DNA of 13,219 nucleotides from a virus, in the IMG/VR virus record IMGVR_UViG_3300045988_160937, positions 1 to 13,219 of that record; one strand, given 5' to 3'. The notes beneath the pieces were generated by a model. The model was given only the letters and a program-made list of their open reading frames with translations, was not told the DNA's origin and made no database searches. Of this stretch, positions 1 to 13,219 are shown in pieces. Position 1 is the first letter of the stretch, and each line of letters starts with the position of its first letter. The translations under genes and the position numbers were made by a program.

Positions 1-96
1 CTAAAGTAATCCCCCCCCTCCCCCCGAATTTGGCGAATTAAATGTAGAGGGGTGTAGTTATGTATAGAAGTATTTATGTATTTAGGTATTTAGGGG
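1..96. repeat. Left inverted terminal repeat (96 bp, perfect reverse-complement of 13124-13219); replication origin of a protein-primed linear genome
   Basis: I reverse-complemented the right end by hand: it is identical to 1-96 and diverges at position 97 (left ggtt, right ttga). The terminus CTAAAGTAATCCCCCCCCTCCCCCC resembles the phi29 termini AAAGTAAGCCCCCACCC. It contains C8-T-C6 homopolymer tracts. Confidence 0.9.
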
Positions 97-147
97 GGTT
101 ATGGTTATATAATAACTAAATTATTTAATTTATTTTTATTAAAACTA

Positions 148-176
148 TTGACAAACCAAAATATTTATGGTATAAT
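148..176 (+). promoter_or_regulatory. Early promoter P1: consensus sigma70 with extended -10
   Basis: -35 TTGACA at 148-153, 17-nt spacer, TGg TATAAT at 168-176. Both hexamers are perfect matches. Confidence 0.75.
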
Positions 177-236
177 ATTAATGTAAATAGTTGATATATA
201 ATAACTAAATTATTTAATTTATTTTTATCAAAACTA

Positions 237-265
237 TTGACAAACTAAAATATTTATGGTATAAT
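237..265 (+). promoter_or_regulatory. Early promoter P2, a duplicate of P1: consensus sigma70 with extended -10
   Basis: -35 TTGACA at 237-242, 17-nt spacer, TGg TATAAT at 257-265. The predicted TSS near 272 lies upstream of the SD AAGAGG (283-288) and the ATG at 297. Confidence 0.75.
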
Positions 266-296
266 ATTAATGTAAATAATGAAAGAGGTAATTAAA

Positions 297-602
297 ATGA
301 AAAAACAAATTAAGATATTAACGCAAATTAGAAACCCGATAACTTTAACACTTGAATTGGTTGAAGTAGTAGTTGTAGAGTATGACAAAGATACTTATTA
401 TTATTCACCGTTGTTTAAAGGTAATAAAAATAAGATTGGATTACCAAATACTTTTGAGTTGATTGATAAATTAACAGGCATATGTGTAGTGTATTCAACT
501 AATAAAAGCATATTATTTAGTAACTATGAAGTTAATTATGAATACTATCAATTTACTAAAAAACTAAATACTATAATGATTTATGTAGAAAGTATGATTT
601 AA
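297..602 (+). CDS. Early protein of unknown function, paralog A (first gene after the terminal promoters)
   Basis: ORF track 279-602. I prefer the internal ATG at 297, which has an AAGAGG SD 8 nt upstream. The ATG at 279 sits about 7 nt from the predicted TSS with no SD. It shares the motif EYDxxxYYYSPxFKGNxN...IDKLTGxxVV with the next ORF. Confidence 0.6.
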   Translation: MKKQIKILTQIRNPITLTLELVEVVVVEYDKDTYYYSPLFKGNKNKIGLPNTFELIDKLTGICVVYSTNKSILFSNYEVNYEYYQFTKKLNTIMIYVESMI

Positions 603-652: not shown

Positions 653-973
653 ATGAAAAAGATTAAATTTCTAGTGCAATGTAAACAAATGAATGGAGAA
701 ATAGGATTAGAAGAAGTATATGTTACTGAATATGATGATTATTGTTATTACTATTCTCCTAAATTTAAAGGTAATGAAAATTTATTTGAGTGCTATCAAA
801 TGATTGATAAATTAACTGGTATGGTAGTTGTATTTGCTAATAATAAAGATTTATTAATAGATAGATATAAAAGGGCACTAGATAAGTATTTTAGAATAAT
901 AAAAGGTAAAATTTATAATGAAAAAATTAATGAATATCTAGCAAAAATAAAGGAGGTGATAAATAATGATTAA
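653..973 (+). CDS. Early protein of unknown function, paralog B (tandem duplicate of the previous gene)
   Basis: SD GAGAGGT at 639-645 and ATG at 653. Protein segment TEYDDYCYYYSPKFKGNENLFECYQMIDKLTGMVVVFANNKDLL aligns with EYDKDTYYYSPLFKGNKNKIGLPNTFELIDKLTGICVVYSTNKSIL in ORF 297-602. Confidence 0.65.
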   Translation: MKKIKFLVQCKQMNGEIGLEEVYVTEYDDYCYYYSPKFKGNENLFECYQMIDKLTGMVVVFANNKDLLIDRYKRALDKYFRIIKGKIYNEKINEYLAKIKEVINND

Positions 974-1175
974 TGAAGAATGTTTAGTAATGCATAATGA
1001 AGAAACAAAAGATATAGTAGTATTTACACATGCATACAATGAAGACGGTGATGAAGTATATACATATGCAAATAAAATAGTATTAATGGCATTATCATAT
1101 GATAATTATCAAGATATGTGGAATTATTATGATAGTTTAAATTATAAAGTTTTAATGCATACACAAAAGGCTTAA
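966..1175 (+). CDS. Small acidic early protein, unknown function
   Basis: Strong SD AAGGAGGTG at 952-960 and ATG at 966, which overlaps the stop of the previous gene (ATAATGA). 69 aa, rich in D/E/Y/N. Confidence 0.55.
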   Translation: MINEECLVMHNEETKDIVVFTHAYNEDGDEVYTYANKIVLMALSYDNYQDMWNYYDSLNYKVLMHTQKA

Positions 1176-1181
1176 GCCTTT
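1166..1181 (+). promoter_or_regulatory. Perfect 16-bp palindrome AAAGGCTTAAGCCTTT overlapping the stop codon; weak hairpin/attenuator or protein-binding site
   Basis: Self-complementary. Possible stem AAAGGC/GCCTTT with loop TTAA, followed by cttaatct, which is not a clean U-tract. A second small palindrome, GCTAGC, lies at 1212-1217. Confidence 0.3.
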
Positions 1182-1248
1182 CTTAATCTAGCCATTTAAA
1201 TATGAAGGTCGCTAGCCCTTTAAAATAGAGAGCGAGAAAGGAAAAAAT

Positions 1249-2585: not shown

Positions 2586-2948
2586 ATGAAAATTTTTATT
2601 TATGAAAAAAAGTATATTTCAAAGAAAGACGGAAATAAATTTCCTGTTTTAAAAGGTATTTTAAGAAAGGAAGATACTAAAACTAATACCGACCACTATT
2701 TTAATATCGGATTTTACAAGGAAGATAAAGATTTATTTAATAAAGAAATGTTAAAGAAAGATTTATCATTTCCTATTACAATTGATTTAAAACCAAATGA
2801 TTATTTCATTTCTAAAAAATATGATAAAGAAAAGAAAATTGAAATTTTAACATTAGTTATTAAAAATTGGACTGACATGCAACAAGAAGAATGGAAGACA
2901 AATACTTTAGAAGATTTTGCTAAACAAAATGATAAATTACCTTTTTAA
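2586..2948 (+). CDS. Early protein immediately upstream of the terminal-protein gene (120 aa); SSB/DNA-binding replication accessory by position only
   Basis: ORF track starts at GTG 2565. I prefer ATG 2586, which follows the purine-rich gagagaaagagaaaaa. In phi29 the genes preceding the TP gene encode SSB p5 and DBP p6. I see no sequence similarity to either. Confidence 0.45.
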   Translation: MKIFIYEKKYISKKDGNKFPVLKGILRKEDTKTNTDHYFNIGFYKEDKDLFNKEMLKKDLSFPITIDLKPNDYFISKKYDKEKKIEILTLVIKNWTDMQQEEWKTNTLEDFAKQNDKLPF

Positions 2949-2961
2949 GAGGTAATTCTGT

Positions 2962-3600
2962 ATGGCAAAAAATCTTACATTAAAAAAGATACTTAGCCTT
3001 GATTACACTGATTTGTCAAAAATGACAAAAAATGACTTAATACAAATGTCAAAAGTACTTTCAAGAAATATGAATAGAAGGATGAAAACTTTACAAACTA
3101 AAGGTTATAGTTCTCAATCAAGAGCCTTTAATTTATATCAACAATCTTTAAAAAGTGGTGTTACATACACAACTTCAAAAGATATAGAAAAAATGACACG
3201 TAATCAAATGTTGAAACAAATCACAACCGCATATAACATTATGAAACTTAAAAGTTCAACGTTTGAGGGTGTTAAAAAAATTCTTACAGGTGTTGATAAA
3301 CGTCTAGCCGATTTAGATTCAAGCAATCAAATTACATGGTCATATAATGACGCTAGCAATGCAATGAAAGATAAATTTTGGGAAATATATAATAGAATAA
3401 CCGAGTTGCGTAATGATTATGATAGTTATCAACTTCAAAAAGATATTGCTATAATGTTTTCAAATAGCGATAAAAGACATAGTGCTGAATGGTATACAAT
3501 TAGATTAAATGAAAAATATGATGAAATTTATAAAAGACAACAAGAAGAAACCCTCAAGGATTTAGAGCGGTTCAATGGAAATTCTAATTTTTTCATCTAA
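2962..3600 (+). CDS. Putative terminal protein (primer protein for protein-primed replication), 212 aa
   Basis: SD AAGAGG at 2947-2952 and ATG at 2962. It lies directly upstream of the protein-primed polB and overlaps it by 26 nt, the conserved TP-then-pol arrangement in phi29 and Cp-1-like phages. The call rests on position, the ITR-bearing genome and its size; I did not align it residue by residue. Confidence 0.5.
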   Translation: MAKNLTLKKILSLDYTDLSKMTKNDLIQMSKVLSRNMNRRMKTLQTKGYSSQSRAFNLYQQSLKSGVTYTTSKDIEKMTRNQMLKQITTAYNIMKLKSSTFEGVKKILTGVDKRLADLDSSNQITWSYNDASNAMKDKFWEIYNRITELRNDYDSYQLQKDIAIMFSNSDKRHSAEWYTIRLNEKYDEIYKRQQEETLKDLERFNGNSNFFI

Positions 3601-5764
3601 TAAATCAAAAATTGAGGAGGTTTTACAAAGTATAAAATCTAAAGCAAAAATAAGTAAGAAAGGTAAAAAATACTACTACAATTTTGCTTGCGGTTTTGAC
3701 ACTGAAACTTCCTCTTTTTATCAAAATTTAAAAACGGGTAAAACTTCTTTATCTTTAGATAATGTAAATAAAAATGAAATTAAAGACTATGTAAAAAGAG
3801 GTATTGTATATGAGTGGACTTTTGGTATATATTCAAATGGTGATATTTTAATTGTAATTGGTAGAACACTTGAAGAATATCAAGAATTATATAATATGAT
3901 AACTAATATTTTTGATACAAACGCTATTAATTTATTAATTTACGTACACAACCTTGCTTTTGATTTTCAATTTATAAGAGGTTATTTTACCTTTGATAAA
4001 GTGTTTGCGATTGAAGAAAGAAAAGTATTAAAGGCTATTACAAATGATGGCGTTGAATATCGTTGTAGTTATCAATTAAGTGGTTATTCTTTAAGTGTTG
4101 TTGCCAAAAATCTAACAAAGCATAAAATTGAAAAGTTAGTAGGCGATTTAGATTATTCTAAAATACGACATTCAACAACACCACTTACACAAGAAGAGTT
4201 AGATTATTGTATTCACGACGTTATAATTATATTATACTATATTGATGAAACAATTACAAATGACGGAGATATTACTAAAATACCCCTTACCAAAACGGGT
4301 TATGTACGTAATTATTGTCGCAAGGCTTGTTATAAGGTAGTAGGTGATAAAAAGGCAAGCAAAGATAAAACACGCAAATACTATGCTTTAATGCAAAAAT
4401 TAACCTTAACTACTGATGAATACGATTTACTAAAAACTTCTTTTATGGGAGGTTTTACACACGCAAATGCAATGAATTGTGGTAAAGTGTATGAAAATGT
4501 TAGAAGTTTTGATGAGACTTCCGCATATCCGACTGTGATGATTGCCGAGAAATTTCCGATGAGTAAAGGTATACAAATAAATCATATTACTAAACAAGAA
4601 TTTGAAGAAAAAGTACGCAATTATTGTTGCGTATTCGACGTTGAATTAAATGACGTTGAAAGTTTGATTTACTATGAAAATTATATCTCATCATCAAAAT
4701 GTAGAAGTCTTGAAAATCAACTTGAAAATAATGGACGCATTGTTTCCGCAAAACGTCTAATAATATCAATAACTAATATTGATTGGGAGATTATCAAACG
4801 CACATATTCTTTTTCATCCTTTAGAATAGGTAGATTTTATTATTATCAAAAAGGGTATTTACCTACTGATTTTGTAAAATCAATTCTAAAACTTTATAGT
4901 GATAAAACAACCCTAAAGGACGTTGAAGGAAAAGAAACTGAATACTTATCATCTAAAGGGATGATTAATTCGGCATATGGTTGTTGCGTTACTGATATTG
5001 TTCGTGATGAAATAATTTATGATATGGAAGGGTGGCATAAAGAAAAAAACACAACTGAAAATATTGATAAAATTATAACAAAATATAATAAATCAAGAAA
5101 TAGATTTCTTTTCTATGCATGGGGCGTTTTTGTAACCGCATATGCACGTGCAAATCTTTGGAGTGGTATTTTTGAATTAAAAGAAGATTATATTTATAGT
5201 GATACCGATTCGCTAAAATTTATTAATTATGATAAACATAAACATTTTTTTGAATTGTATAACAATAGACTAATTTATAAACTTCAAAAAGCCCTAGACT
5301 ATCATAAAATACCTTACGAGGCTTACATACCAAAAACAATTAAAGGCGTTGAAAAAATATTAGGTGTATGGGATGATGAAGGCATATATGATAAATTTAA
5401 GACTTTAGGTGCAAAACGATATATGTATTTTAAAAATGATAAACTAACTTTAACCATAAGTGGTGTAAATAAAAAAACCGCAACACCGTGGTTGCTAAAA
5501 CATTTTGCAAATGATGATATTAAACAAGTTGATAAAGTTTTTAATGCTTTTGAAAACGAGTTAGAATTTTCTAAAGACGCAACAGGTAAACAAACACACA
5601 CATATTTAGATTTCGAATATGAAGGTTATGTAAAAGATTATACAGGTAAATTAGGTTATTATCATGAGTTTGCAAGCATACATTTAGAAAGTACTACATA
5701 CTCACTTTCAATCAGTCAACAATTTTTAGACTATTTAAAAGGTATTAAGTATATAAAAATTTAA
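3575..5764 (+). CDS. Protein-primed family-B DNA polymerase (phi29 gp2-like)
   Basis: Motifs line up with phi29 DNA polymerase. Exo I is FACGFDTETSS (phi29 YSCDFETTT). Exo II is YVHNLAFDFQFI (YFHNLKFDGAFI). Exo III is YCIHDV (YIKND). Pre-motif A is FMGGFTHAN (YRGGFTWLN). Motif A is FDETSAYP (FDVNSLYP). Motif B is KGMINSAYGCCV (KLMLNSLYGKF). Motif C is YIYSDTDSLKF (IIYCDTDSIHL). KxY is LGAKRYMYF. The start at 3575 has no clear SD; an in-frame GAGGAGG at 3614-3620 makes the exact start uncertain. Confidence 0.93.
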   Translation: MEILIFSSNKSKIEEVLQSIKSKAKISKKGKKYYYNFACGFDTETSSFYQNLKTGKTSLSLDNVNKNEIKDYVKRGIVYEWTFGIYSNGDILIVIGRTLEEYQELYNMITNIFDTNAINLLIYVHNLAFDFQFIRGYFTFDKVFAIEERKVLKAITNDGVEYRCSYQLSGYSLSVVAKNLTKHKIEKLVGDLDYSKIRHSTTPLTQEELDYCIHDVIIILYYIDETITNDGDITKIPLTKTGYVRNYCRKACYKVVGDKKASKDKTRKYYALMQKLTLTTDEYDLLKTSFMGGFTHANAMNCGKVYENVRSFDETSAYPTVMIAEKFPMSKGIQINHITKQEFEEKVRNYCCVFDVELNDVESLIYYENYISSSKCRSLENQLENNGRIVSAKRLIISITNIDWEIIKRTYSFSSFRIGRFYYYQKGYLPTDFVKSILKLYSDKTTLKDVEGKETEYLSSKGMINSAYGCCVTDIVRDEIIYDMEGWHKEKNTTENIDKIITKYNKSRNRFLFYAWGVFVTAYARANLWSGIFELKEDYIYSDTDSLKFINYDKHKHFFELYNNRLIYKLQKALDYHKIPYEAYIPKTIKGVEKILGVWDDEGIYDKFKTLGAKRYMYFKNDKLTLTISGVNKKTATPWLLKHFANDDIKQVDKVFNAFENELEFSKDATGKQTHTYLDFEYEGYVKDYTGKLGYYHEFASIHLESTTYSLSISQQFLDYLKGIKYIKI

Positions 5765-5803
5765 AGTGTAAGTATGATTAACTTACACTTTATTTTATTT
5801 TAC
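5762..5803. terminator. Bidirectional rho-independent terminator between the convergent transcription units
   Basis: A 12-bp stem, 5762-5773 ttaagtgtaagt pairing with 5781-5792 acttacacttat, encloses the loop atgatta. T-tracts lie on both sides: tattttattttac downstream on +, and tttttatatac on the - strand side. It sits between the polymerase stop (5764) and the ATPase stop (5795). Confidence 0.7.
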
Positions 5804-6922
5804 AGGAAATCCGCAAGCCATTAAATAGTTGCGTACTACTTCACCAATCATATTATCTTGATAGAAAACTTTATCAAGTTTAAAAAACCATACAATTTTT
5901 TCTTCAAGTTTTGTAACAGGCACATTTATTCGACGTCTATATTTTGGTGAAGGGTTAAACTCAAGAGAATAAATAACTGTTTCCTGTTCTTTTCTTATTG
6001 GTGTTGTTTTTTTATGTATATATGTATATACGCATTTATGTTCGTCATCTCTAATAATTTCACATTGCAAGGTTTCACCTTCAAACTTAATATAGTAAAT
6101 AAATAAGATATCTTCAAATTTATATTTGTAAGGTAAATGAGGGTATATTCCAATTTCCCATGTATTGCCTTCACCTGTAATCATATTTAATTTTGGATTA
6201 TCAAAAGCAAAATAAACATTACTTTTCTTATTTTTTCCAATACCGTCGGCAAATTCAACTGCAACTTTTAATTTACTATTTCCATAACTGTAAATATCAA
6301 TATCGCCCGGTTTCATGCGTTTGGCTCTAGTTAAACCCATTTCACCAAAATAAGGGTTATAAGGGTTTATTGAGTTACCGCACATATATATTTCAACATT
6401 TTCACGTAATCTAATAATAGTTGAAAGTGTGTTTGTAAATAATACAAATTCATCTTCTAAATAGCCGTTTCTTGATATAAATTCGTCAAATAAAATTGTT
6501 GTAACATTTGGAAAACTTGCCGATTTATCGTGTTCCATTGACGCTAAAGAAAACGCATAACAAAAAGGTTTTTTGTCTAACACGTCACTATTTAAAGTTT
6601 CATCAAAATTTGCTAAAAACCACATTGAAGATTTGTAAACAATTTTTGAAAATTTACCTTTAGTGATATCTTTTACTCTACCTTCATTAACTAAATTTTC
6701 AAAGGTTCGTGCTCCACGTTTGCCTCTAAAATCTTCAAGCATACGACGCAATATTGCTCCTTCATCTTTATAACCGCTTTCTACATATCTTTGAAGTATT
6801 AACTCTAATACACTAAATGATTTACCATTTGAACGTTCACCAAAAATAACAAAATATTTACAACCTCCTACTTCTTTGCTTTTTTCTCTAATTCTAGTTA
6901 AACGATAGTATTTAGGTTTCAT
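5795..6922 (-). CDS. DNA encapsidation (packaging) ATPase, phi29 gp16-like
   Basis: Walker A FVIFGERSNGKSFS matches phi29 gp16 FVIGARGIGKSYA. Walker B TTILFDEFIS matches STIVFDEFIRE. NSINPYNPYF matches NAVSVVNPYF. It is the last gene of the late unit, as in phi29. Its start is coupled to the upstream tail gene stop (TAATG). Confidence 0.88.
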   Translation of the reverse strand: MKPKYYRLTRIREKSKEVGGCKYFVIFGERSNGKSFSVLELILQRYVESGYKDEGAILRRMLEDFRGKRGARTFENLVNEGRVKDITKGKFSKIVYKSSMWFLANFDETLNSDVLDKKPFCYAFSLASMEHDKSASFPNVTTILFDEFISRNGYLEDEFVLFTNTLSTIIRLRENVEIYMCGNSINPYNPYFGEMGLTRAKRMKPGDIDIYSYGNSKLKVAVEFADGIGKNKKSNVYFAFDNPKLNMITGEGNTWEIGIYPHLPYKYKFEDILFIYYIKFEGETLQCEIIRDDEHKCVYTYIHKKTTPIRKEQETVIYSLEFNPSPKYRRRINVPVTKLEEKIVWFFKLDKVFYQDNMIGEVVRNYLMACGFPVK

Positions 6923-9375: not shown

Positions 9376-9407
9376 ATAAAAATAAAGAGTGGTGTATTCC
9401 ACCACTC
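9376..9407 (-). terminator. Intrinsic terminator/attenuator downstream of the major capsid gene (partial read-through into the tail gene)
   Basis: On the - strand: gagtggtg-gaata-caccactc, an 8-bp stem with a 5-nt loop, followed by tttatttttat, then SD AAGGAGG and the tail gene ATG at 9357. Confidence 0.6.
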
Positions 9408-9411
9408 AAAA

Positions 9412-10572
9412 TTAAGCAATAAAGAATACTACAAAATTTTCCGCTAAATCATTGAAATATCTTGAAGTAAATTTGTGCCAGTAGTTCATAAATTGTGCGT
9501 TAGGCGTATTCATAGTTGTTACTTCTCTACGTGGTTGTAAAATACCTAAAGCCTCATCATCAAACATAACACCTAAAATACCACTAGCGGTAACATTATT
9601 AGATTTTGCAGTTATAACATTAATTTTTGAAACACTGTCAAACGCAAAATCGGTTCCACTACCTTGCCAATATGAAATAGTTTCATGCTTTGGTAAAGAA
9701 ACAAGTTCGTTATGATATGTATCACTTTGTAAGTATACTTGTGTTGCACTTTCAAAATCATTAAGTAAAACAACATGTAAATAATCTTTTGGTGTATGTT
9801 TAGTTGTTCCTTCAATATTGTATAATTTAGAAACGGCTTTCATACGATTCATTGTTAAAGTCATAACTTCAACACAATATCTAATAAACTCTTTATCTTG
9901 TAATGCCGTTGCTACTGTTAATGTTGTGTCAGGGTGTAAAGCCTTATATCTTGCAAATAAATTGATTGCACGTGTGTTTCCTACACCTGTAAAAGTTGTG
10001 CCACTATTGTAAGCGTCAAACAAAGTTTCACCAATAAAGTTATTAACACTACGTTTTGCTAATTCTTCAATTTTAATTTCCATTGATAGTTGAACGTTAC
10101 CCTCAATCATTGAAATAAACTTAACATAATCTTCAGGACTCTTTAAACTTTCTTGTACTTGAAGTGAAGTAATTGATACTTGAATTTGGAAAGTACTTGC
10201 TTGATTGTAGAATTTTTCATAAACTTTTGGTTTTTTGTAAACGTGAGGGTCATAACTTGCACCGTCAACTAATTCCCAACTTTCATTTTCAATTGCCTCA
10301 GGGATTTCACCACGTACTTTTGCAAGGATTGAACCATATTCCCAATAATCTTTTAAGATAGTTTGTAGTTCGCCACTGTATGGACGGTTAACAAAGATTG
10401 TACGTCCAATTCTATTTGCTAATTCATTACAATAGTTGTCTACACCTAATTTCTCTTGTAATTTGCCTCCAATATCTACTACATTGGAAAGGTCTTCCTG
10501 AAGTACTTCGGTTTCACCTAATACCTCTTTTGTCATATCATTGACTAATTCATAAACTTGTGTGATTTTCAT
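9412..10572 (-). CDS. Major capsid (head) protein, phi29 gp8-like (386 aa; no C-terminal BIG2-type extension)
   Basis: The N-terminal segment ELANRIGRTIFVNRPYSG resembles phi29 gp8 SLVDRIGLVVIRQVSLNNP. SD AAGGAGG precedes the ATG at 10572. It is followed by a terminator hairpin, and its size and position are typical of a picovirus MCP. Confidence 0.7.
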   Translation of the reverse strand: MKITQVYELVNDMTKEVLGETEVLQEDLSNVVDIGGKLQEKLGVDNYCNELANRIGRTIFVNRPYSGELQTILKDYWEYGSILAKVRGEIPEAIENESWELVDGASYDPHVYKKPKVYEKFYNQASTFQIQVSITSLQVQESLKSPEDYVKFISMIEGNVQLSMEIKIEELAKRSVNNFIGETLFDAYNSGTTFTGVGNTRAINLFARYKALHPDTTLTVATALQDKEFIRYCVEVMTLTMNRMKAVSKLYNIEGTTKHTPKDYLHVVLLNDFESATQVYLQSDTYHNELVSLPKHETISYWQGSGTDFAFDSVSKINVITAKSNNVTASGILGVMFDDEALGILQPRREVTTMNTPNAQFMNYWHKFTSRYFNDLAENFVVFFIA

Positions 10573-10592
10573 ATTTTAAATTCCTCCTTTTT

Positions 10593-11165
10593 TTAATAAC
10601 CTACATAATACAACGTAAATGTTTGACCACTTGTCACATTATCACATTCAATAACCCAATCATTACTAGAATTGGCTGTAATATAAAAATTATAAGTTTT
10701 AGTATCAATTGTTATTTGCCCTACTAAAAATTTACCAATACCCGTAACAATATTAATAGGTAATGCAATGCTAGTGCCACCTACGATTGTTGATATAAAC
10801 AAATTTCTAGTATATGGAAAATCTATATATTTTATAATACTTTTTTTATCACTATTAAACCTACCATTATAACTATTGTAAGTACTTTTAAAAGTTACAT
10901 TTACTTCACCGCTTTCAATATAAGCAACTACACTAAAACCATATACATAAAATGTGAAATATGTTGATTTTTTAACAACATTAGTTATAAAGTCGTTATA
11001 TTCTACACCATTTATCACGATACCACTGACAATTGTATGCTTATAGTAATTATGCTCTAATAGTTCTATTAAATTATATGATAAGTCTAATTTTTGAGTT
11101 TGTACGGGTGCCGTAATATTAATATTTTCTAAATCTATAATTAAATAACCGCCTTTTTTTGACAT
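10593..11165 (-). CDS. Virion-region protein, unknown (190 aa, beta-rich Y/T/V/N composition); possible head fibre/decoration or tail component
   Basis: SD AAGGAGG precedes the ATG at 11165. It lies between the connector-region genes and the capsid gene. I recognise no catalytic motif. Confidence 0.4.
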   Translation of the reverse strand: MSKKGGYLIIDLENINITAPVQTQKLDLSYNLIELLEHNYYKHTIVSGIVINGVEYNDFITNVVKKSTYFTFYVYGFSVVAYIESGEVNVTFKSTYNSYNGRFNSDKKSIIKYIDFPYTRNLFISTIVGGTSIALPINIVTGIGKFLVGQITIDTKTYNFYITANSSNDWVIECDNVTSGQTFTLYYVGY

Positions 11166-11178
11166 TATTAAAACCTCC

Positions 11179-11862
11179 TTATAGCCAAATTTTTAAAGTT
11201 AGATAATCATCAAATGACTTAAGAATAATATCATAAAAATTATTCATCGTTCTTAAGTCTAATTCTTTTAAGATTAAATCTTGAGAAGGCATATCGCTAC
11301 CACTAGTCTCAATCTTTTCATCTCCTGTTTCTTTTGTGGTTCGTGTTTCTTCGTTGTCATTCATTTCACCACTATTGATTGATTGATTCAAGTTTGTAAA
11401 GTCCTCACTATTATAACCGCTAACTTGATTAGTATTAGTAACTTTACTTTTAATATTTCTTGTTTCATCGTGTTGCAAATTAGGTGTACGTGTTTTAGTT
11501 TCTTTCTTACTATCTAAAATATTATATTTAGTTGTTAAACTTTCAAATATATTAGTCCAATTTGCAATATTTTTGATATAAATCATATATGAAAGACTTT
11601 TAATTTTCTCTTCGTCTAATTGGTTGTTTTCATTGAGAAAAATTTCAACAATTTTAGCGATGATTTTATAACCACATTTTTGATAAATTAATGATACGTC
11701 AAGCATTTCATTAGTTTCATCACTTTGTAAAAATAAGGGTATATCAACTTGCCTTTCAGTTAAAGTTTGCTTTAAATAATATATAAATCCTCTAAAATCT
11801 TGCTTAAAACTATTCGGCATTGTTTCTATTAGTGTCGGTCGGTTCAGTACTTCGCAACTCAT
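11179..11862 (-). CDS. Virion-region protein with a long acidic S/T/N/E-rich low-complexity C-terminal half (227 aa); scaffolding protein or lower-collar candidate
   Basis: ORF track starts at 11886. I prefer the ATG at 11862 (MSCEVLNRPT), which has SD AAGGAGG (complement of 11873-11879) 8 nt upstream. It overlaps the connector gene 3' end by 53 nt in another frame. Confidence 0.45.
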   Translation of the reverse strand: MSCEVLNRPTLIETMPNSFKQDFRGFIYYLKQTLTERQVDIPLFLQSDETNEMLDVSLIYQKCGYKIIAKIVEIFLNENNQLDEEKIKSLSYMIYIKNIANWTNIFESLTTKYNILDSKKETKTRTPNLQHDETRNIKSKVTNTNQVSGYNSEDFTNLNQSINSGEMNDNEETRTTKETGDEKIETSGSDMPSQDLILKELDLRTMNNFYDIILKSFDDYLTLKIWL

Positions 11863-12835
11863 CTTTATCAACCTCCTTATTTTCAACTTCTTGTATCATT
11901 TCATCTTTTTTAAGTTTCCACGATAAGCCTAAATCAACTTGAATATTTGTGCCAAACATTTCATTGACTTTGTCAAAACTTTCTTGACGACTCAACAACA
12001 TATCATCTACAAACGGTAACAAAGCGTCATCATTTAATTGACTTTCACTACTATTAAGACTTTCTCTCTTCATATTATAATTGGCATTTAAGCCCAATTC
12101 ATTAAACCAACTTGCTTTATAATATTGAAGTAATTCAATTAATTGTGTGATTGATTGATTGTTGTTTTGTCCGTTGAAAAGACTTTTGATGACTTCTTCA
12201 TTCATAATTGCTTGTGATGAAAAAACACTTAACAAATCACCTTCTTCGAGTTTTTTTATCATCACTTCGTAACTTTCTTTTGTGTTCTTATCACTTGTTG
12301 CAACAATTGTCATTAATCTTGTTAACACACTTGATATTTTTAAGGACAATTCAGTTTCAGTTAAAGCCGTTGCATATCTTCTACATAATGGTGTTAAGCC
12401 AATTAAAGTACTATCATTTTTGATAATAACACAATTCTTACCAACTTCAAGTGTAAAACTTCCATATACAGGATTTGCAATAATAAATTGTTTTGGTACA
12501 TAGTTGCCGTCAAGTTCACCACCCCATGCACCAAAGCATATATACAAATCGCCTTCACCTTTCAAGTCTTCAGTTAAGGGTTGTAGCATTCCATTTGATA
12601 AAGTTTTAGCCTTGAAACAACAAAGATAACCAATTGATTGTAACCACAATTCAAGTAATCGTTTATCAATAGTTTTAGGTAAATTTTCATACTTAAACAT
12701 TCTAGAAGTTTTAGAAAACATATATTGCATATTATTTCTAACACATACTTGTTTATTTTTAAAATCATAAACATTAGAATTAATCCAACTATACCCCATA
12801 CCACCTATAAAATCATTCTCTTTTTTCCTACCCAT
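11810..12835 (-). CDS. Head-tail connector / portal protein, phi29 gp10-like (upper collar)
   Basis: MGRKKEN...YENLPKTIDKRLLELWLQSIGYLCCFK aligns with phi29 gp10 MARKRSN...[27 protein letters not shown]. C-terminal ESFDKVNEMFGTNIQVDLG aligns with EEACEKINELYGLNVKVKF. SD AAGGTGG is present, and the start overlaps the upstream stop (TAATG). Confidence 0.85.
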   Translation of the reverse strand: MGRKKENDFIGGMGYSWINSNVYDFKNKQVCVRNNMQYMFSKTSRMFKYENLPKTIDKRLLELWLQSIGYLCCFKAKTLSNGMLQPLTEDLKGEGDLYICFGAWGGELDGNYVPKQFIIANPVYGSFTLEVGKNCVIIKNDSTLIGLTPLCRRYATALTETELSLKISSVLTRLMTIVATSDKNTKESYEVMIKKLEEGDLLSVFSSQAIMNEEVIKSLFNGQNNNQSITQLIELLQYYKASWFNELGLNANYNMKRESLNSSESQLNDDALLPFVDDMLLSRQESFDKVNEMFGTNIQVDLGLSWKLKKDEMIQEVENKEVDKDELRSTEPTDTNRNNAE

Positions 12836-13074
12836 TAGTTGCCACCTTCTTTTTTAAGATTTTCTAATTCATCAATAGCCTTGTCAACTTCTTGTTTAAC
12901 TTTTTCAAACTTTTTATTTTTAATTGCTTTATAAACATTATAACATAGTTTAAATAAAATCCATAAAATTTGTATTGAAATAATTATAACACCTAGTATA
13001 CTTTCTATTTGTGAAATACCTAAAGCCATACCAATAGCAATTAATGTTGTATCAATAATGTTGTCATACTTCAT
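12835..13074 (-). CDS. Small membrane protein (79 aa, two predicted TM helices plus a charged coiled-coil-like C-terminus); class-II-holin-like, or alternatively a phi29 p16.7-like membrane anchor
   Basis: Hydrophobic stretches TTLIAIGMALGISQI and ILGVIIISIQILWILFKL are followed by KNKKFEKVKQEVDKAIDELENLKKEGGN. It is the first gene after the right-end promoter, with SD AGGAGG and ATG at 13074. Confidence 0.45.
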   Translation of the reverse strand: MKYDNIIDTTLIAIGMALGISQIESILGVIIISIQILWILFKLCYNVYKAIKNKKFEKVKQEVDKAIDELENLKKEGGN

Positions 13075-13094
13075 AACTTATACCTCCTATAAAT

Positions 13095-13123
13095 ATTATA
13101 TCATAAATAAATAACTACGTCAA
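13095..13123 (-). promoter_or_regulatory. Right-end promoter driving the leftward structural/late operon: consensus sigma70 with extended -10
   Basis: The - strand reads TTGACG (complement of 13118-13123), a 17-nt spacer, then TGa TATAAT (-10 at complement of 13095-13100). It is immediately followed by ataggaggtataagtt ATG (13074) and abuts the ITR. Confidence 0.7.
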
Positions 13124-13219
13124 CCCCTAAATACCTAAATACATAAATACTTCTATACATAACTACACCCCTCTACATTTAATTCGCCAAATTCGGGGGG
13201 AGGGGGGGGATTACTTTAG
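13124..13219. repeat. Right inverted terminal repeat (96 bp)
   Basis: It is the exact reverse complement of 1-96. Confidence 0.9.

Follow-up and report, generated by a model that had tools for sequence, protein, structure and literature searches.

Results

The window, by which we mean the whole stretch of 13,219 nt analysed here, comprises an entire linear genome from the human gut; its GC content is ~27%, and a perfect 96-nt inverted terminal repeat (ITR) bounds it at both ends. From its sequence we class it as a very small phi29-like podovirus, the hallmarks found being the ITR, a family-B protein-primed DNA polymerase, a gp16-type ATPase, and a capsid protein and connector of phi29 type; the window has above-cut-off scores for PF03175, PF05894, PF25622 and PF05352, and the PHROG matches are concordant. 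The genes are laid out in a plus-strand left arm and a minus-strand right arm that converge (Table 1), and no RNA polymerase gene is present in the window. In the left arm, the 120-aa ORF that precedes the putative terminal-protein gene has no family match but is probably the phage SSB, to judge from its C-terminal NDKLPF, which resembles the acidic D-D-D-I-P-F tip of bacterial SSBs. The region of the 190-aa ORF in the right arm (gap ~10590-11120) is the sole segment there that is unaligned between the window and any relative, and this ORF probably encodes the receptor-binding protein.

Table 1. Coordinates of the features discussed in the text, in window positions; assignments of promoters, starts and gene functions are predictions.
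Feature	Position	Strand	Details
Left ITR	1-96	.	96 nt, 100% complementary to right ITR
Promoter module copy 1	106-194	+	84-nt repeat 106-189 plus 5-nt junction GTTGA
A/T-rich UP-element-like tracts	121-147 (P1), 210-236 (P2)	+	read from sequence
P1	148-176	+	-35 TTGACA 148-153; 17-nt spacer; TATG (TRTG -16 motif); TG 168-169; -10 TATAAT 171-176
Copy-to-copy junction			TAAATA-GTTGA-TATATAAT; spanning sequence TAAATAGTTGATATATAAT
Promoter module copy 2	195-278	+	defined by repeat and alignment
P2	237-265	+	-35 TTGACA 237-242; 17-nt spacer; TG 257-258; -10 TATAAT 260-265
First early gene	297-602	+	101 aa; SD AAAGAGG 282-288; ATG 297; gene caller starts at the equivalent ATG in L138
Second early gene	653-973	+	106 aa; paralog of first
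SSB candidate ORF	2586-2948	+	120 aa; directly upstream of putative terminal-protein gene; C-terminus ...NDKLPF
Candidate terminal protein	2962-3600	+	212 aa; overlaps polymerase start; named from position only, no family match
Family-B protein-primed-type DNA polymerase	3575-5764	+	last in left arm; PF03175, phrog_1907
Central bidirectional intrinsic terminator	5762-5792	.	12-bp stem; between DNA polymerase gene (+) and packaging ATPase gene (-)
gp16-type packaging ATPase	5795-6922	-	
Protein with Listeria-Bacteroides repeats		-	827 aa; right arm
Strong intrinsic terminator	9387-9407	-	directly after major capsid gene; z -5.2
phi29-type major capsid protein	9412-10572	-	PF25622
190-aa ORF	10593-11165		right arm
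phi29-type connector	11810-12835	-	
Right-end promoter	13072-13123	-	-35 TTGACG 13123-13118; TG 13103-13102; -10 TATAAT 13100-13095
First structural-arm gene		-	79-aa membrane protein; SD GGAGG 13087-13083; ATG 13074
Right ITR	13124-13219	.	96 nt, perfect

A megablast search with the whole window against 50,697 phage records returned no near-identical isolate genome. Relatives among isolates are detectable at the protein level only, the nearest polymerases (Astrithrvirus group, Amedibacillus phages and Clostridium phage HM2) being 36-46% identical. Comparison relies on 13 close relatives, all human-gut metagenome contigs with ~90-95% nucleotide identity over the core; one further contig, L138, represents the same genome as the window and is counted in addition to these 13. 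IMG/VR scans for the ITR tip, for the right promoter and for the promoter module's conserved box added no further relatives.

The contig ends of four relatives start at AAAGTAATCCCCCCCCTCCCC (AAAGTAATCCCC...), and the window carries two extra bases (CT) at each end. The terminal AAAGTAATCCCCCCCCTCCCC of the relatives resembles the AAAGTA(AG) termini of phi29-group phages. The outermost bases of the window (1-25 and 13195-13219) contain a long C-tract despite the 73% A/T content of the genome. Repeats with an 8-bp period (TATTTATG/TATTTAGG) occupy 53-92 in the inner ITR, and at the right end (13102-13167) the periodicity extends through the -35 and spacer of the promoter there (TRF period 8, 8.2 copies), so that the TATG of the -16 motif at this end belongs to the 8-bp repeat unit. 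In relative L003, the left ITR continues at 97-112 into the -35 of the right-end promoter (TTGACGTA), and no -10 follows at a distance that could be used; the inner boundary of the ITR thus shifts among strains.

Immediately inside the left ITR lies a direct repeat of 84 nt (106-189 and 195-278), 98% identical between copies and with a start-to-start distance of 89 (TRF: period 89, 1.9 copies, 97% matches). An earlier note on this DNA had described a duplicated 84-bp module with perfect consensus extended -10 promoters, and this description is borne out, except that 84 nt is the length of the module and not the period of the repeat, which is 89. The two mismatches between the copies, at 140/229 (T/C, in the upstream A/T tract) and 157/246 (C/T, in the spacer), leave the hexamers untouched. 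Each unit reads, from 5' to 3', an A/T box TATATAATAA(A/C)TAAATTATTTAAT, an A/T tract, the -35, a 17-nt spacer ending in TATGg, the -10, and ~13 nt of initial transcribed sequence. The module begins 10 nt inward of the ITR and the first -35 52 nt inward.

Both P1 and P2 match the hexamer consensus at 12/12 positions and carry TG at -15/-14. The A/T tracts upstream of them, judged by eye, appear to resemble the UP consensus of Estrem et al. 1998. From the usual spacing, transcription is predicted to start near G183 for P1 and near G272 for P2, which would leave a leader of ~25 nt. At all three promoters, P1, P2 and the right-end site, TATGg or TATGa directly precedes TATAAT, and relatives differ here only in TATG versus TGTG; the spacer end TATGg matches the Gram-positive TRTGn -16 motif of Voskuil & Chambliss 2002, as that work is cited in PMC2613000. 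Exact matches to TTGAC-N15-TGNTATAAT number three in the window, and they are these same three sites; at <=1 mismatch, 0.09 would be expected by chance, and 0/200 shuffles reached the observed count. P1, P2 and the right-end site are also the three strongest promoter matches of the genome; they lie in its only sizeable non-coding stretches, and all point inward. Their hexamers, spacing, TGn and placement relative to genes fit housekeeping promoters of the sigma-70/sigma-A type, extended -10 class, to which we assign them on these sequence features. The left end thereby holds a tandem cluster in the sense of at least two co-oriented host-type promoters within ~150 bp, P1 and P2 being 89 bp apart.

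The first gene downstream most likely starts at ATG 297, with the SD GAGG at 285-288, and not at 279. Together with the following gene it forms a pair of paralogs that have EYD..YYYSP.FKGN....IDKLTG..VV in common; neither has a Pfam or PHROG match, and the first gene of relative L052 belongs to the same family. These two genes occupy a slot between the promoter array and a conserved 69-aa gene that holds, depending on the strain, 0-2 unrelated small genes. The slot of L003 contains the remnant of a 5'-truncated gene, and in L028 the point at which the module meets a 131-aa gene falls within the -10 region. No function could be assigned to the variable first genes of the relatives. The left arm downstream of the promoters thus opens with small, hypervariable genes and ends in the protein-primed DNA polymerase.

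Short hairpins follow small early genes in the window (1167-1184, AAAGGCTTAAGCCTTT), in L001 (~363-386) and in L002 (~475-500). The L001 hairpin has the same stem as the window's AAAGGCTTAAGCCTTT with a different loop, and the U-tracts are poor. These hairpins may be weak attenuators or RNA-stabilising structures; as a terminator, the one at 1167-1184, which lies after the third gene, was rejected as weak (regional z -0.95, poor U-tract).

Modules of the window's kind (type A) were aligned from nine contigs. In the 11 copies, the -35, the TG, the -10 and the 17-nt spacing are all invariant, and substitutions fall at permissive positions only (TATG to TGTG, the base at -13, and C/T in the spacer). 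About 10 of the 79 module columns are variable, which is near the genome-wide divergence. Between relatives this close, unchanged hexamers say little about constraint; the conservation of the module is still notable, since different strains have unrelated genes downstream of it. The strains also carry a mixture of two leader subtypes.

The number of copies differs among these genomes. Four strains (window/L138, L052, L001 and L028) have at least two copies with the same GTTGA junction: L052, from another sample, carries two, while L001 and L028 are scored as at least two because their contigs open partway through a preceding copy that has this junction as well. In L027 the order is module, 59-aa gene, module, then gene. 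L003 has one copy, on a contig that spans the ITR through the genes, and L002 probably has one, although such single-copy calls are lower bounds and the true range is uncertain, because short-read assemblies can collapse repeats. A second kind of module (type B) has a TTTGCA-18-TATAAT promoter that matches the consensus at 10/12 positions, repeats with a period of 77, and has nothing but the 5' box and the leader in common with type A; it is present in 2.8-3 copies in L004 and at least two in L005 and L026. Since both the period and the junction differ from those of type A, promoters must have multiplied at least twice at this left-end site. A comparison of repeat copy number among related genomes, proposed in the earlier note, thus shows that it does vary, with one, two or three copies or with copies split by a gene, and two or more is the commoner state among the relatives. 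We found no tandem promoter arrays in the distant relatives AD70P2, astrithr, HM2, MT836125, L031, L043, L007 and L041.

The right-end promoter matches the consensus at 11/12 positions with a 17-nt spacer, and its -35 begins at the first base inside the ITR; the consensus promoter reported for this end (TTGACG-17-TGaTATAAT) therefore exists, but it abuts the right ITR instead of lying within it. The leader of the structural arm is very short, its SD lying ~2 nt past the predicted start (near 13088). Across eight contigs, TTGAC, TG and the -10 of this promoter are fixed and the 5' half of the spacer is variable, with a -35 of TTGACA in L028. The claim that the structural operon has a consensus promoter holds on these grounds.

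Both arms run into the central hairpin at 5762-5792, which folds with z values of -4.7 and -4.9, is kept in the relatives, and has the tails TTTTATTTTA on the plus strand and AAATTTTTATA on the minus strand, where the U-tract is weaker. Of the 12 relative contigs that include the terminator at 9387-9407, 10 have an identical sequence there and two (L006 and L029) match at 98%, which exceeds the genome-average conservation. Presumably this terminator is an attenuator, through which more capsid protein is made than tail and ATPase proteins. The tail-protein and ATPase genes downstream of it have no visible promoter; given how strong this terminator is, they need read-through or an unseen promoter. 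No extra strong internal promoters were evident, the window having 112 promoter-like sites against 94 +/- 10 in shuffles, which we do not count as an excess; the only other site with 11/12 matches (8795, plus strand) was rejected as it lies antisense inside a gene. It had been proposed that all transcription starts at the two genome ends and stops at one central terminator. Convergence on a bidirectional hairpin is supported. Initiation only at the ends and a single terminator are not, given the module after the first gene in L027, the terminator at 9387-9407, and the possibility of weak or factor-dependent promoters.

Searches of Pfam, PHROG and PDB sequences with the left-arm ORFs for a regulator or DNA-binding protein gave sub-threshold noise only, the best match being that of an 89-aa ORF to the HofQ DNA-binding domain (E 5.6e-4, sub-threshold). 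The reported lack of a recognisable p4-like switch protein therefore stands in the sense that no left-arm ORF matches known regulators, but it does not extend to a genuine absence of a switch, as most ORFs have no assignable function. The note's alternative, in which the polarity of DNA entry or replication-dependent copy number would set the timing, is speculative.

The candidate host is a low-GC Clostridium, whose sigma-A the promoter motifs would fit. In two relatives, L029 (1-3030) and L006 (1-490), bacterial genes are fused directly to the phage left arm; they encode a 761-aa aconitase and a 185-aa NrdG, the latter followed by its terminator, and among genomes they match those of Clostridium sp. 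UMGS558 and C. cuniculi best (87-88% at the amino acid level). The join lies at ~-37 of a diverged type-A promoter copy (-35 TTGGTA), both contigs are without ITRs, and the first phage gene past the join is a 132-aa gene (phrog_3754) also found in L028. The join is either a chimeric assembly via a shared gene or host DNA that was genuinely captured; both possibilities hint at a Clostridium host.

Discussion

The promoter and terminator sites of this small genome suggest a simple transcription plan, which we consider likely: two tandem early promoters for host sigma-A would drive the left arm, a single promoter of the same class would drive the structural arm, and the number of copies at the left end would be polymorphic. 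Once the DNA is in the cell, unmodified host RNA polymerase would read P1 and P2, transcribing first the hypervariable accessory genes and then those for the SSB-like protein, the putative terminal protein and the DNA polymerase. The promoter abutting the right ITR would drive the structural and packaging arm, and both arms would end at the central bidirectional terminator. Polymerase footprints of ~-55 to +20 would cover ~128-203 at P1 and ~217-292 at P2 without overlap, and with a distance of 89 bp between the promoters, two polymerases could sit on both together. The duplication, common to several strains, probably arose through unequal recombination or slippage.

We infer that both copies are active and that they act early. 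A rise in early output through extra copies is plausible; it would not have to be a doubling, since consensus promoters can be limited by escape, and one promoter can occlude another that lies downstream of it. The earlier note went further and read the duplication as a sign of selection for very high early expression. This proposal gains some support from the greater frequency of two or more copies, from the retention of one junction next to different cargo, and from the independent triplication of the weaker type-B promoter, which may reflect such selection.

An extension of this reading, which we put forward only tentatively, is that the left-end promoter unit serves as an evolvable dosage dial and at the same time as a portable recombination site. 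Arrays would repeatedly expand and contract (type A twofold with a period of 89, type B threefold with a period of 77), tuning early expression against host defences, and the larger number of copies of the weaker promoter would fit dosage compensation. The conserved promoter-plus-leader would provide the homology for swapping unrelated early-gene cassettes, one of which may be host-derived, with one gene being joined within the -10 region.

The main rival, a related but unlikely explanation, keeps the promoters functional and treats the second copy as a selectively neutral by-product of cassette recombination. Cassettes would bring or use the same promoter-plus-leader module, and loss of an intervening gene would leave two promoters side by side. 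The arrangement in L027, in which a 59-aa gene separates two modules, fits such a history, as do the slot with its 0-2 unrelated genes, the truncated remnant in L003 and the mixing of leader subtypes among strains. Together with the hybrid module of L028, where the 131-aa gene meets the -10 region, L027 shows that recombination does happen within the module. What this explanation accommodates poorly is persistence: perfect tandem repeats normally vanish fast unless maintained, yet at least four strains that differ in their downstream genes still have the GTTGA junction, arrays of several copies are more common than single ones, and an unrelated core promoter was independently triplicated at the same site with a different period.

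It is also conceivable, though improbable, that the repeat unit is mainly an array of protein-binding sites, either for a p6-like organiser at the origin or for a repressor on TATATAATAA(A/C)TAAATTATTTAAT, with the promoters secondary. This box includes the dyad TAAATTA-TT-TAATTTA, is, apart from the leader, the only part present in both type-A and type-B modules, and adjoins the ITR, where p6 nucleates in phi29 (PMC11476376). The box is, however, low-complexity A/T sequence, its 21-mer having ~12 chance matches in unrelated large viruses of IMG/VR, and the dyad is not preserved in type-B modules. Left and right promoters do have TATTTATGnTATAATATT in common beyond their hexamers, but the TRTG motif accounts for the shared spacer. 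Moreover, no DNA-binding protein was recognisable among the left-arm ORFs by Pfam, PHROG or PDB searches, and binding sites would not explain why the -35 and -10 hexamers are both perfect and correctly spaced.

An assembly artefact is highly improbable. Assemblers do struggle at this repeat, as the contigs of L001, L028, L005 and L026 break exactly inside it; but the two copies in the window differ at two positions, the same array with the same mismatches is present in L138, an independent MEGAHIT contig built with k=119, which exceeds the repeat unit, and a two-copy array with the same junction was recovered from a different sample in L052. These independent contigs effectively rule the artefact out. 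Least probable of all, to the point of being negligible, is a small structured, pRNA-like RNA encoded by the region in addition to promoters: the phi29 pRNA gene does lie near the left end and the window has a gp16-type ATPase and a phi29-type connector, but the whole window has no Rfam match at E <=1, the leader from P1 to the first gene folds worse than shuffles (z +1.43), the region is ~90% A/T, and single-copy relatives retain only ~100 nt of it.

Tandem promoters at the left end are an ordinary kind of phage control region. T7 likewise has several strong co-oriented promoters for host RNA polymerase (A1, A2 and A3) just inside its terminal repeat, followed by small early genes, and the spacing of A1-A3 is roughly 100 bp. 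The T7 promoters are three distinct sequences, whereas the copies in the window are near-identical, and copy-number polymorphism is not a known feature of T7. T7 also switches to its own RNA polymerase, for which the window has no gene. The T7 early genes after A1-A3 serve host takeover and anti-defence (bioRxiv 10.1101/2021.08.23.457391).

With phi29 itself the window shares its virus lineage, as seen in the protein-primed DNA polymerase, the gp16 ATPase, and the capsid and connector. The phi29 promoter A3 lacks a good -35. From A3, which requires the activator p4, are read the late genes, which are central in phi29 (PMC11476376), whereas the window's structural arm begins at the genome end, with a near-consensus promoter that includes a -35. 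Early in phi29, the adjacent and co-oriented sigma-A promoters A2b and A2c are used, with C2 at the other end (PMC11476376). A p4-type switch would be recognised by a p4 homologue and a poor -35 at the structural promoter; sequence searches of the window found no such homologue, and the structural-arm -35 is good. The window further differs in its two convergent arms and in that pRNA, which phi29 has, was not detected with Rfam at E <=1. The pRNA gene is a feature of the Salasmaviridae only.

Clostridium phage HM2 (LT600745.1; L136) is a parallel in layout, being a phi29-like, low-GC podovirus with inward-reading promoters at both ends, although its DNA polymerase is only ~38% identical to that of the window. 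Its promoter (TTGACA-17-TGaGATAAT) lies inside an ITR of ~170 bp (left 1-175), in one identical copy per end and with no tandem array. Since HM2 has inward consensus promoters at both ends, the two-ended architecture is not unique to the window. Astrithrvirus-like astrithr and the Amedibacillus phage AD70P2, whose polymerases are the closest in the isolate databases (36-46%), have tiny genomes of 11-12 kb with nearly all genes on one strand, and are without consensus terminal promoter pairs or tandem promoter repeats. What is particular to the window's phage group is the combination of near-identical promoter copies and strain-to-strain variation in their number.

In conclusion, the promoter array of the window does not overturn current understanding. 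If both copies fire, a phage of ~13 kb without an RNA polymerase or a recognisable regulator would set its early expression by the number of host promoters, and its structural genes would be transcribed from the opposite end by way of a consensus promoter that seems unregulated. Such a scheme would contrast usefully with the elaborate p4/p6 switch of phi29, and the sites themselves would be a source of strong, short and well-defined promoters for low-GC gut Firmicutes. The one-, two- and three-copy variants provide a natural series in which to see how tandem promoters add or interfere.
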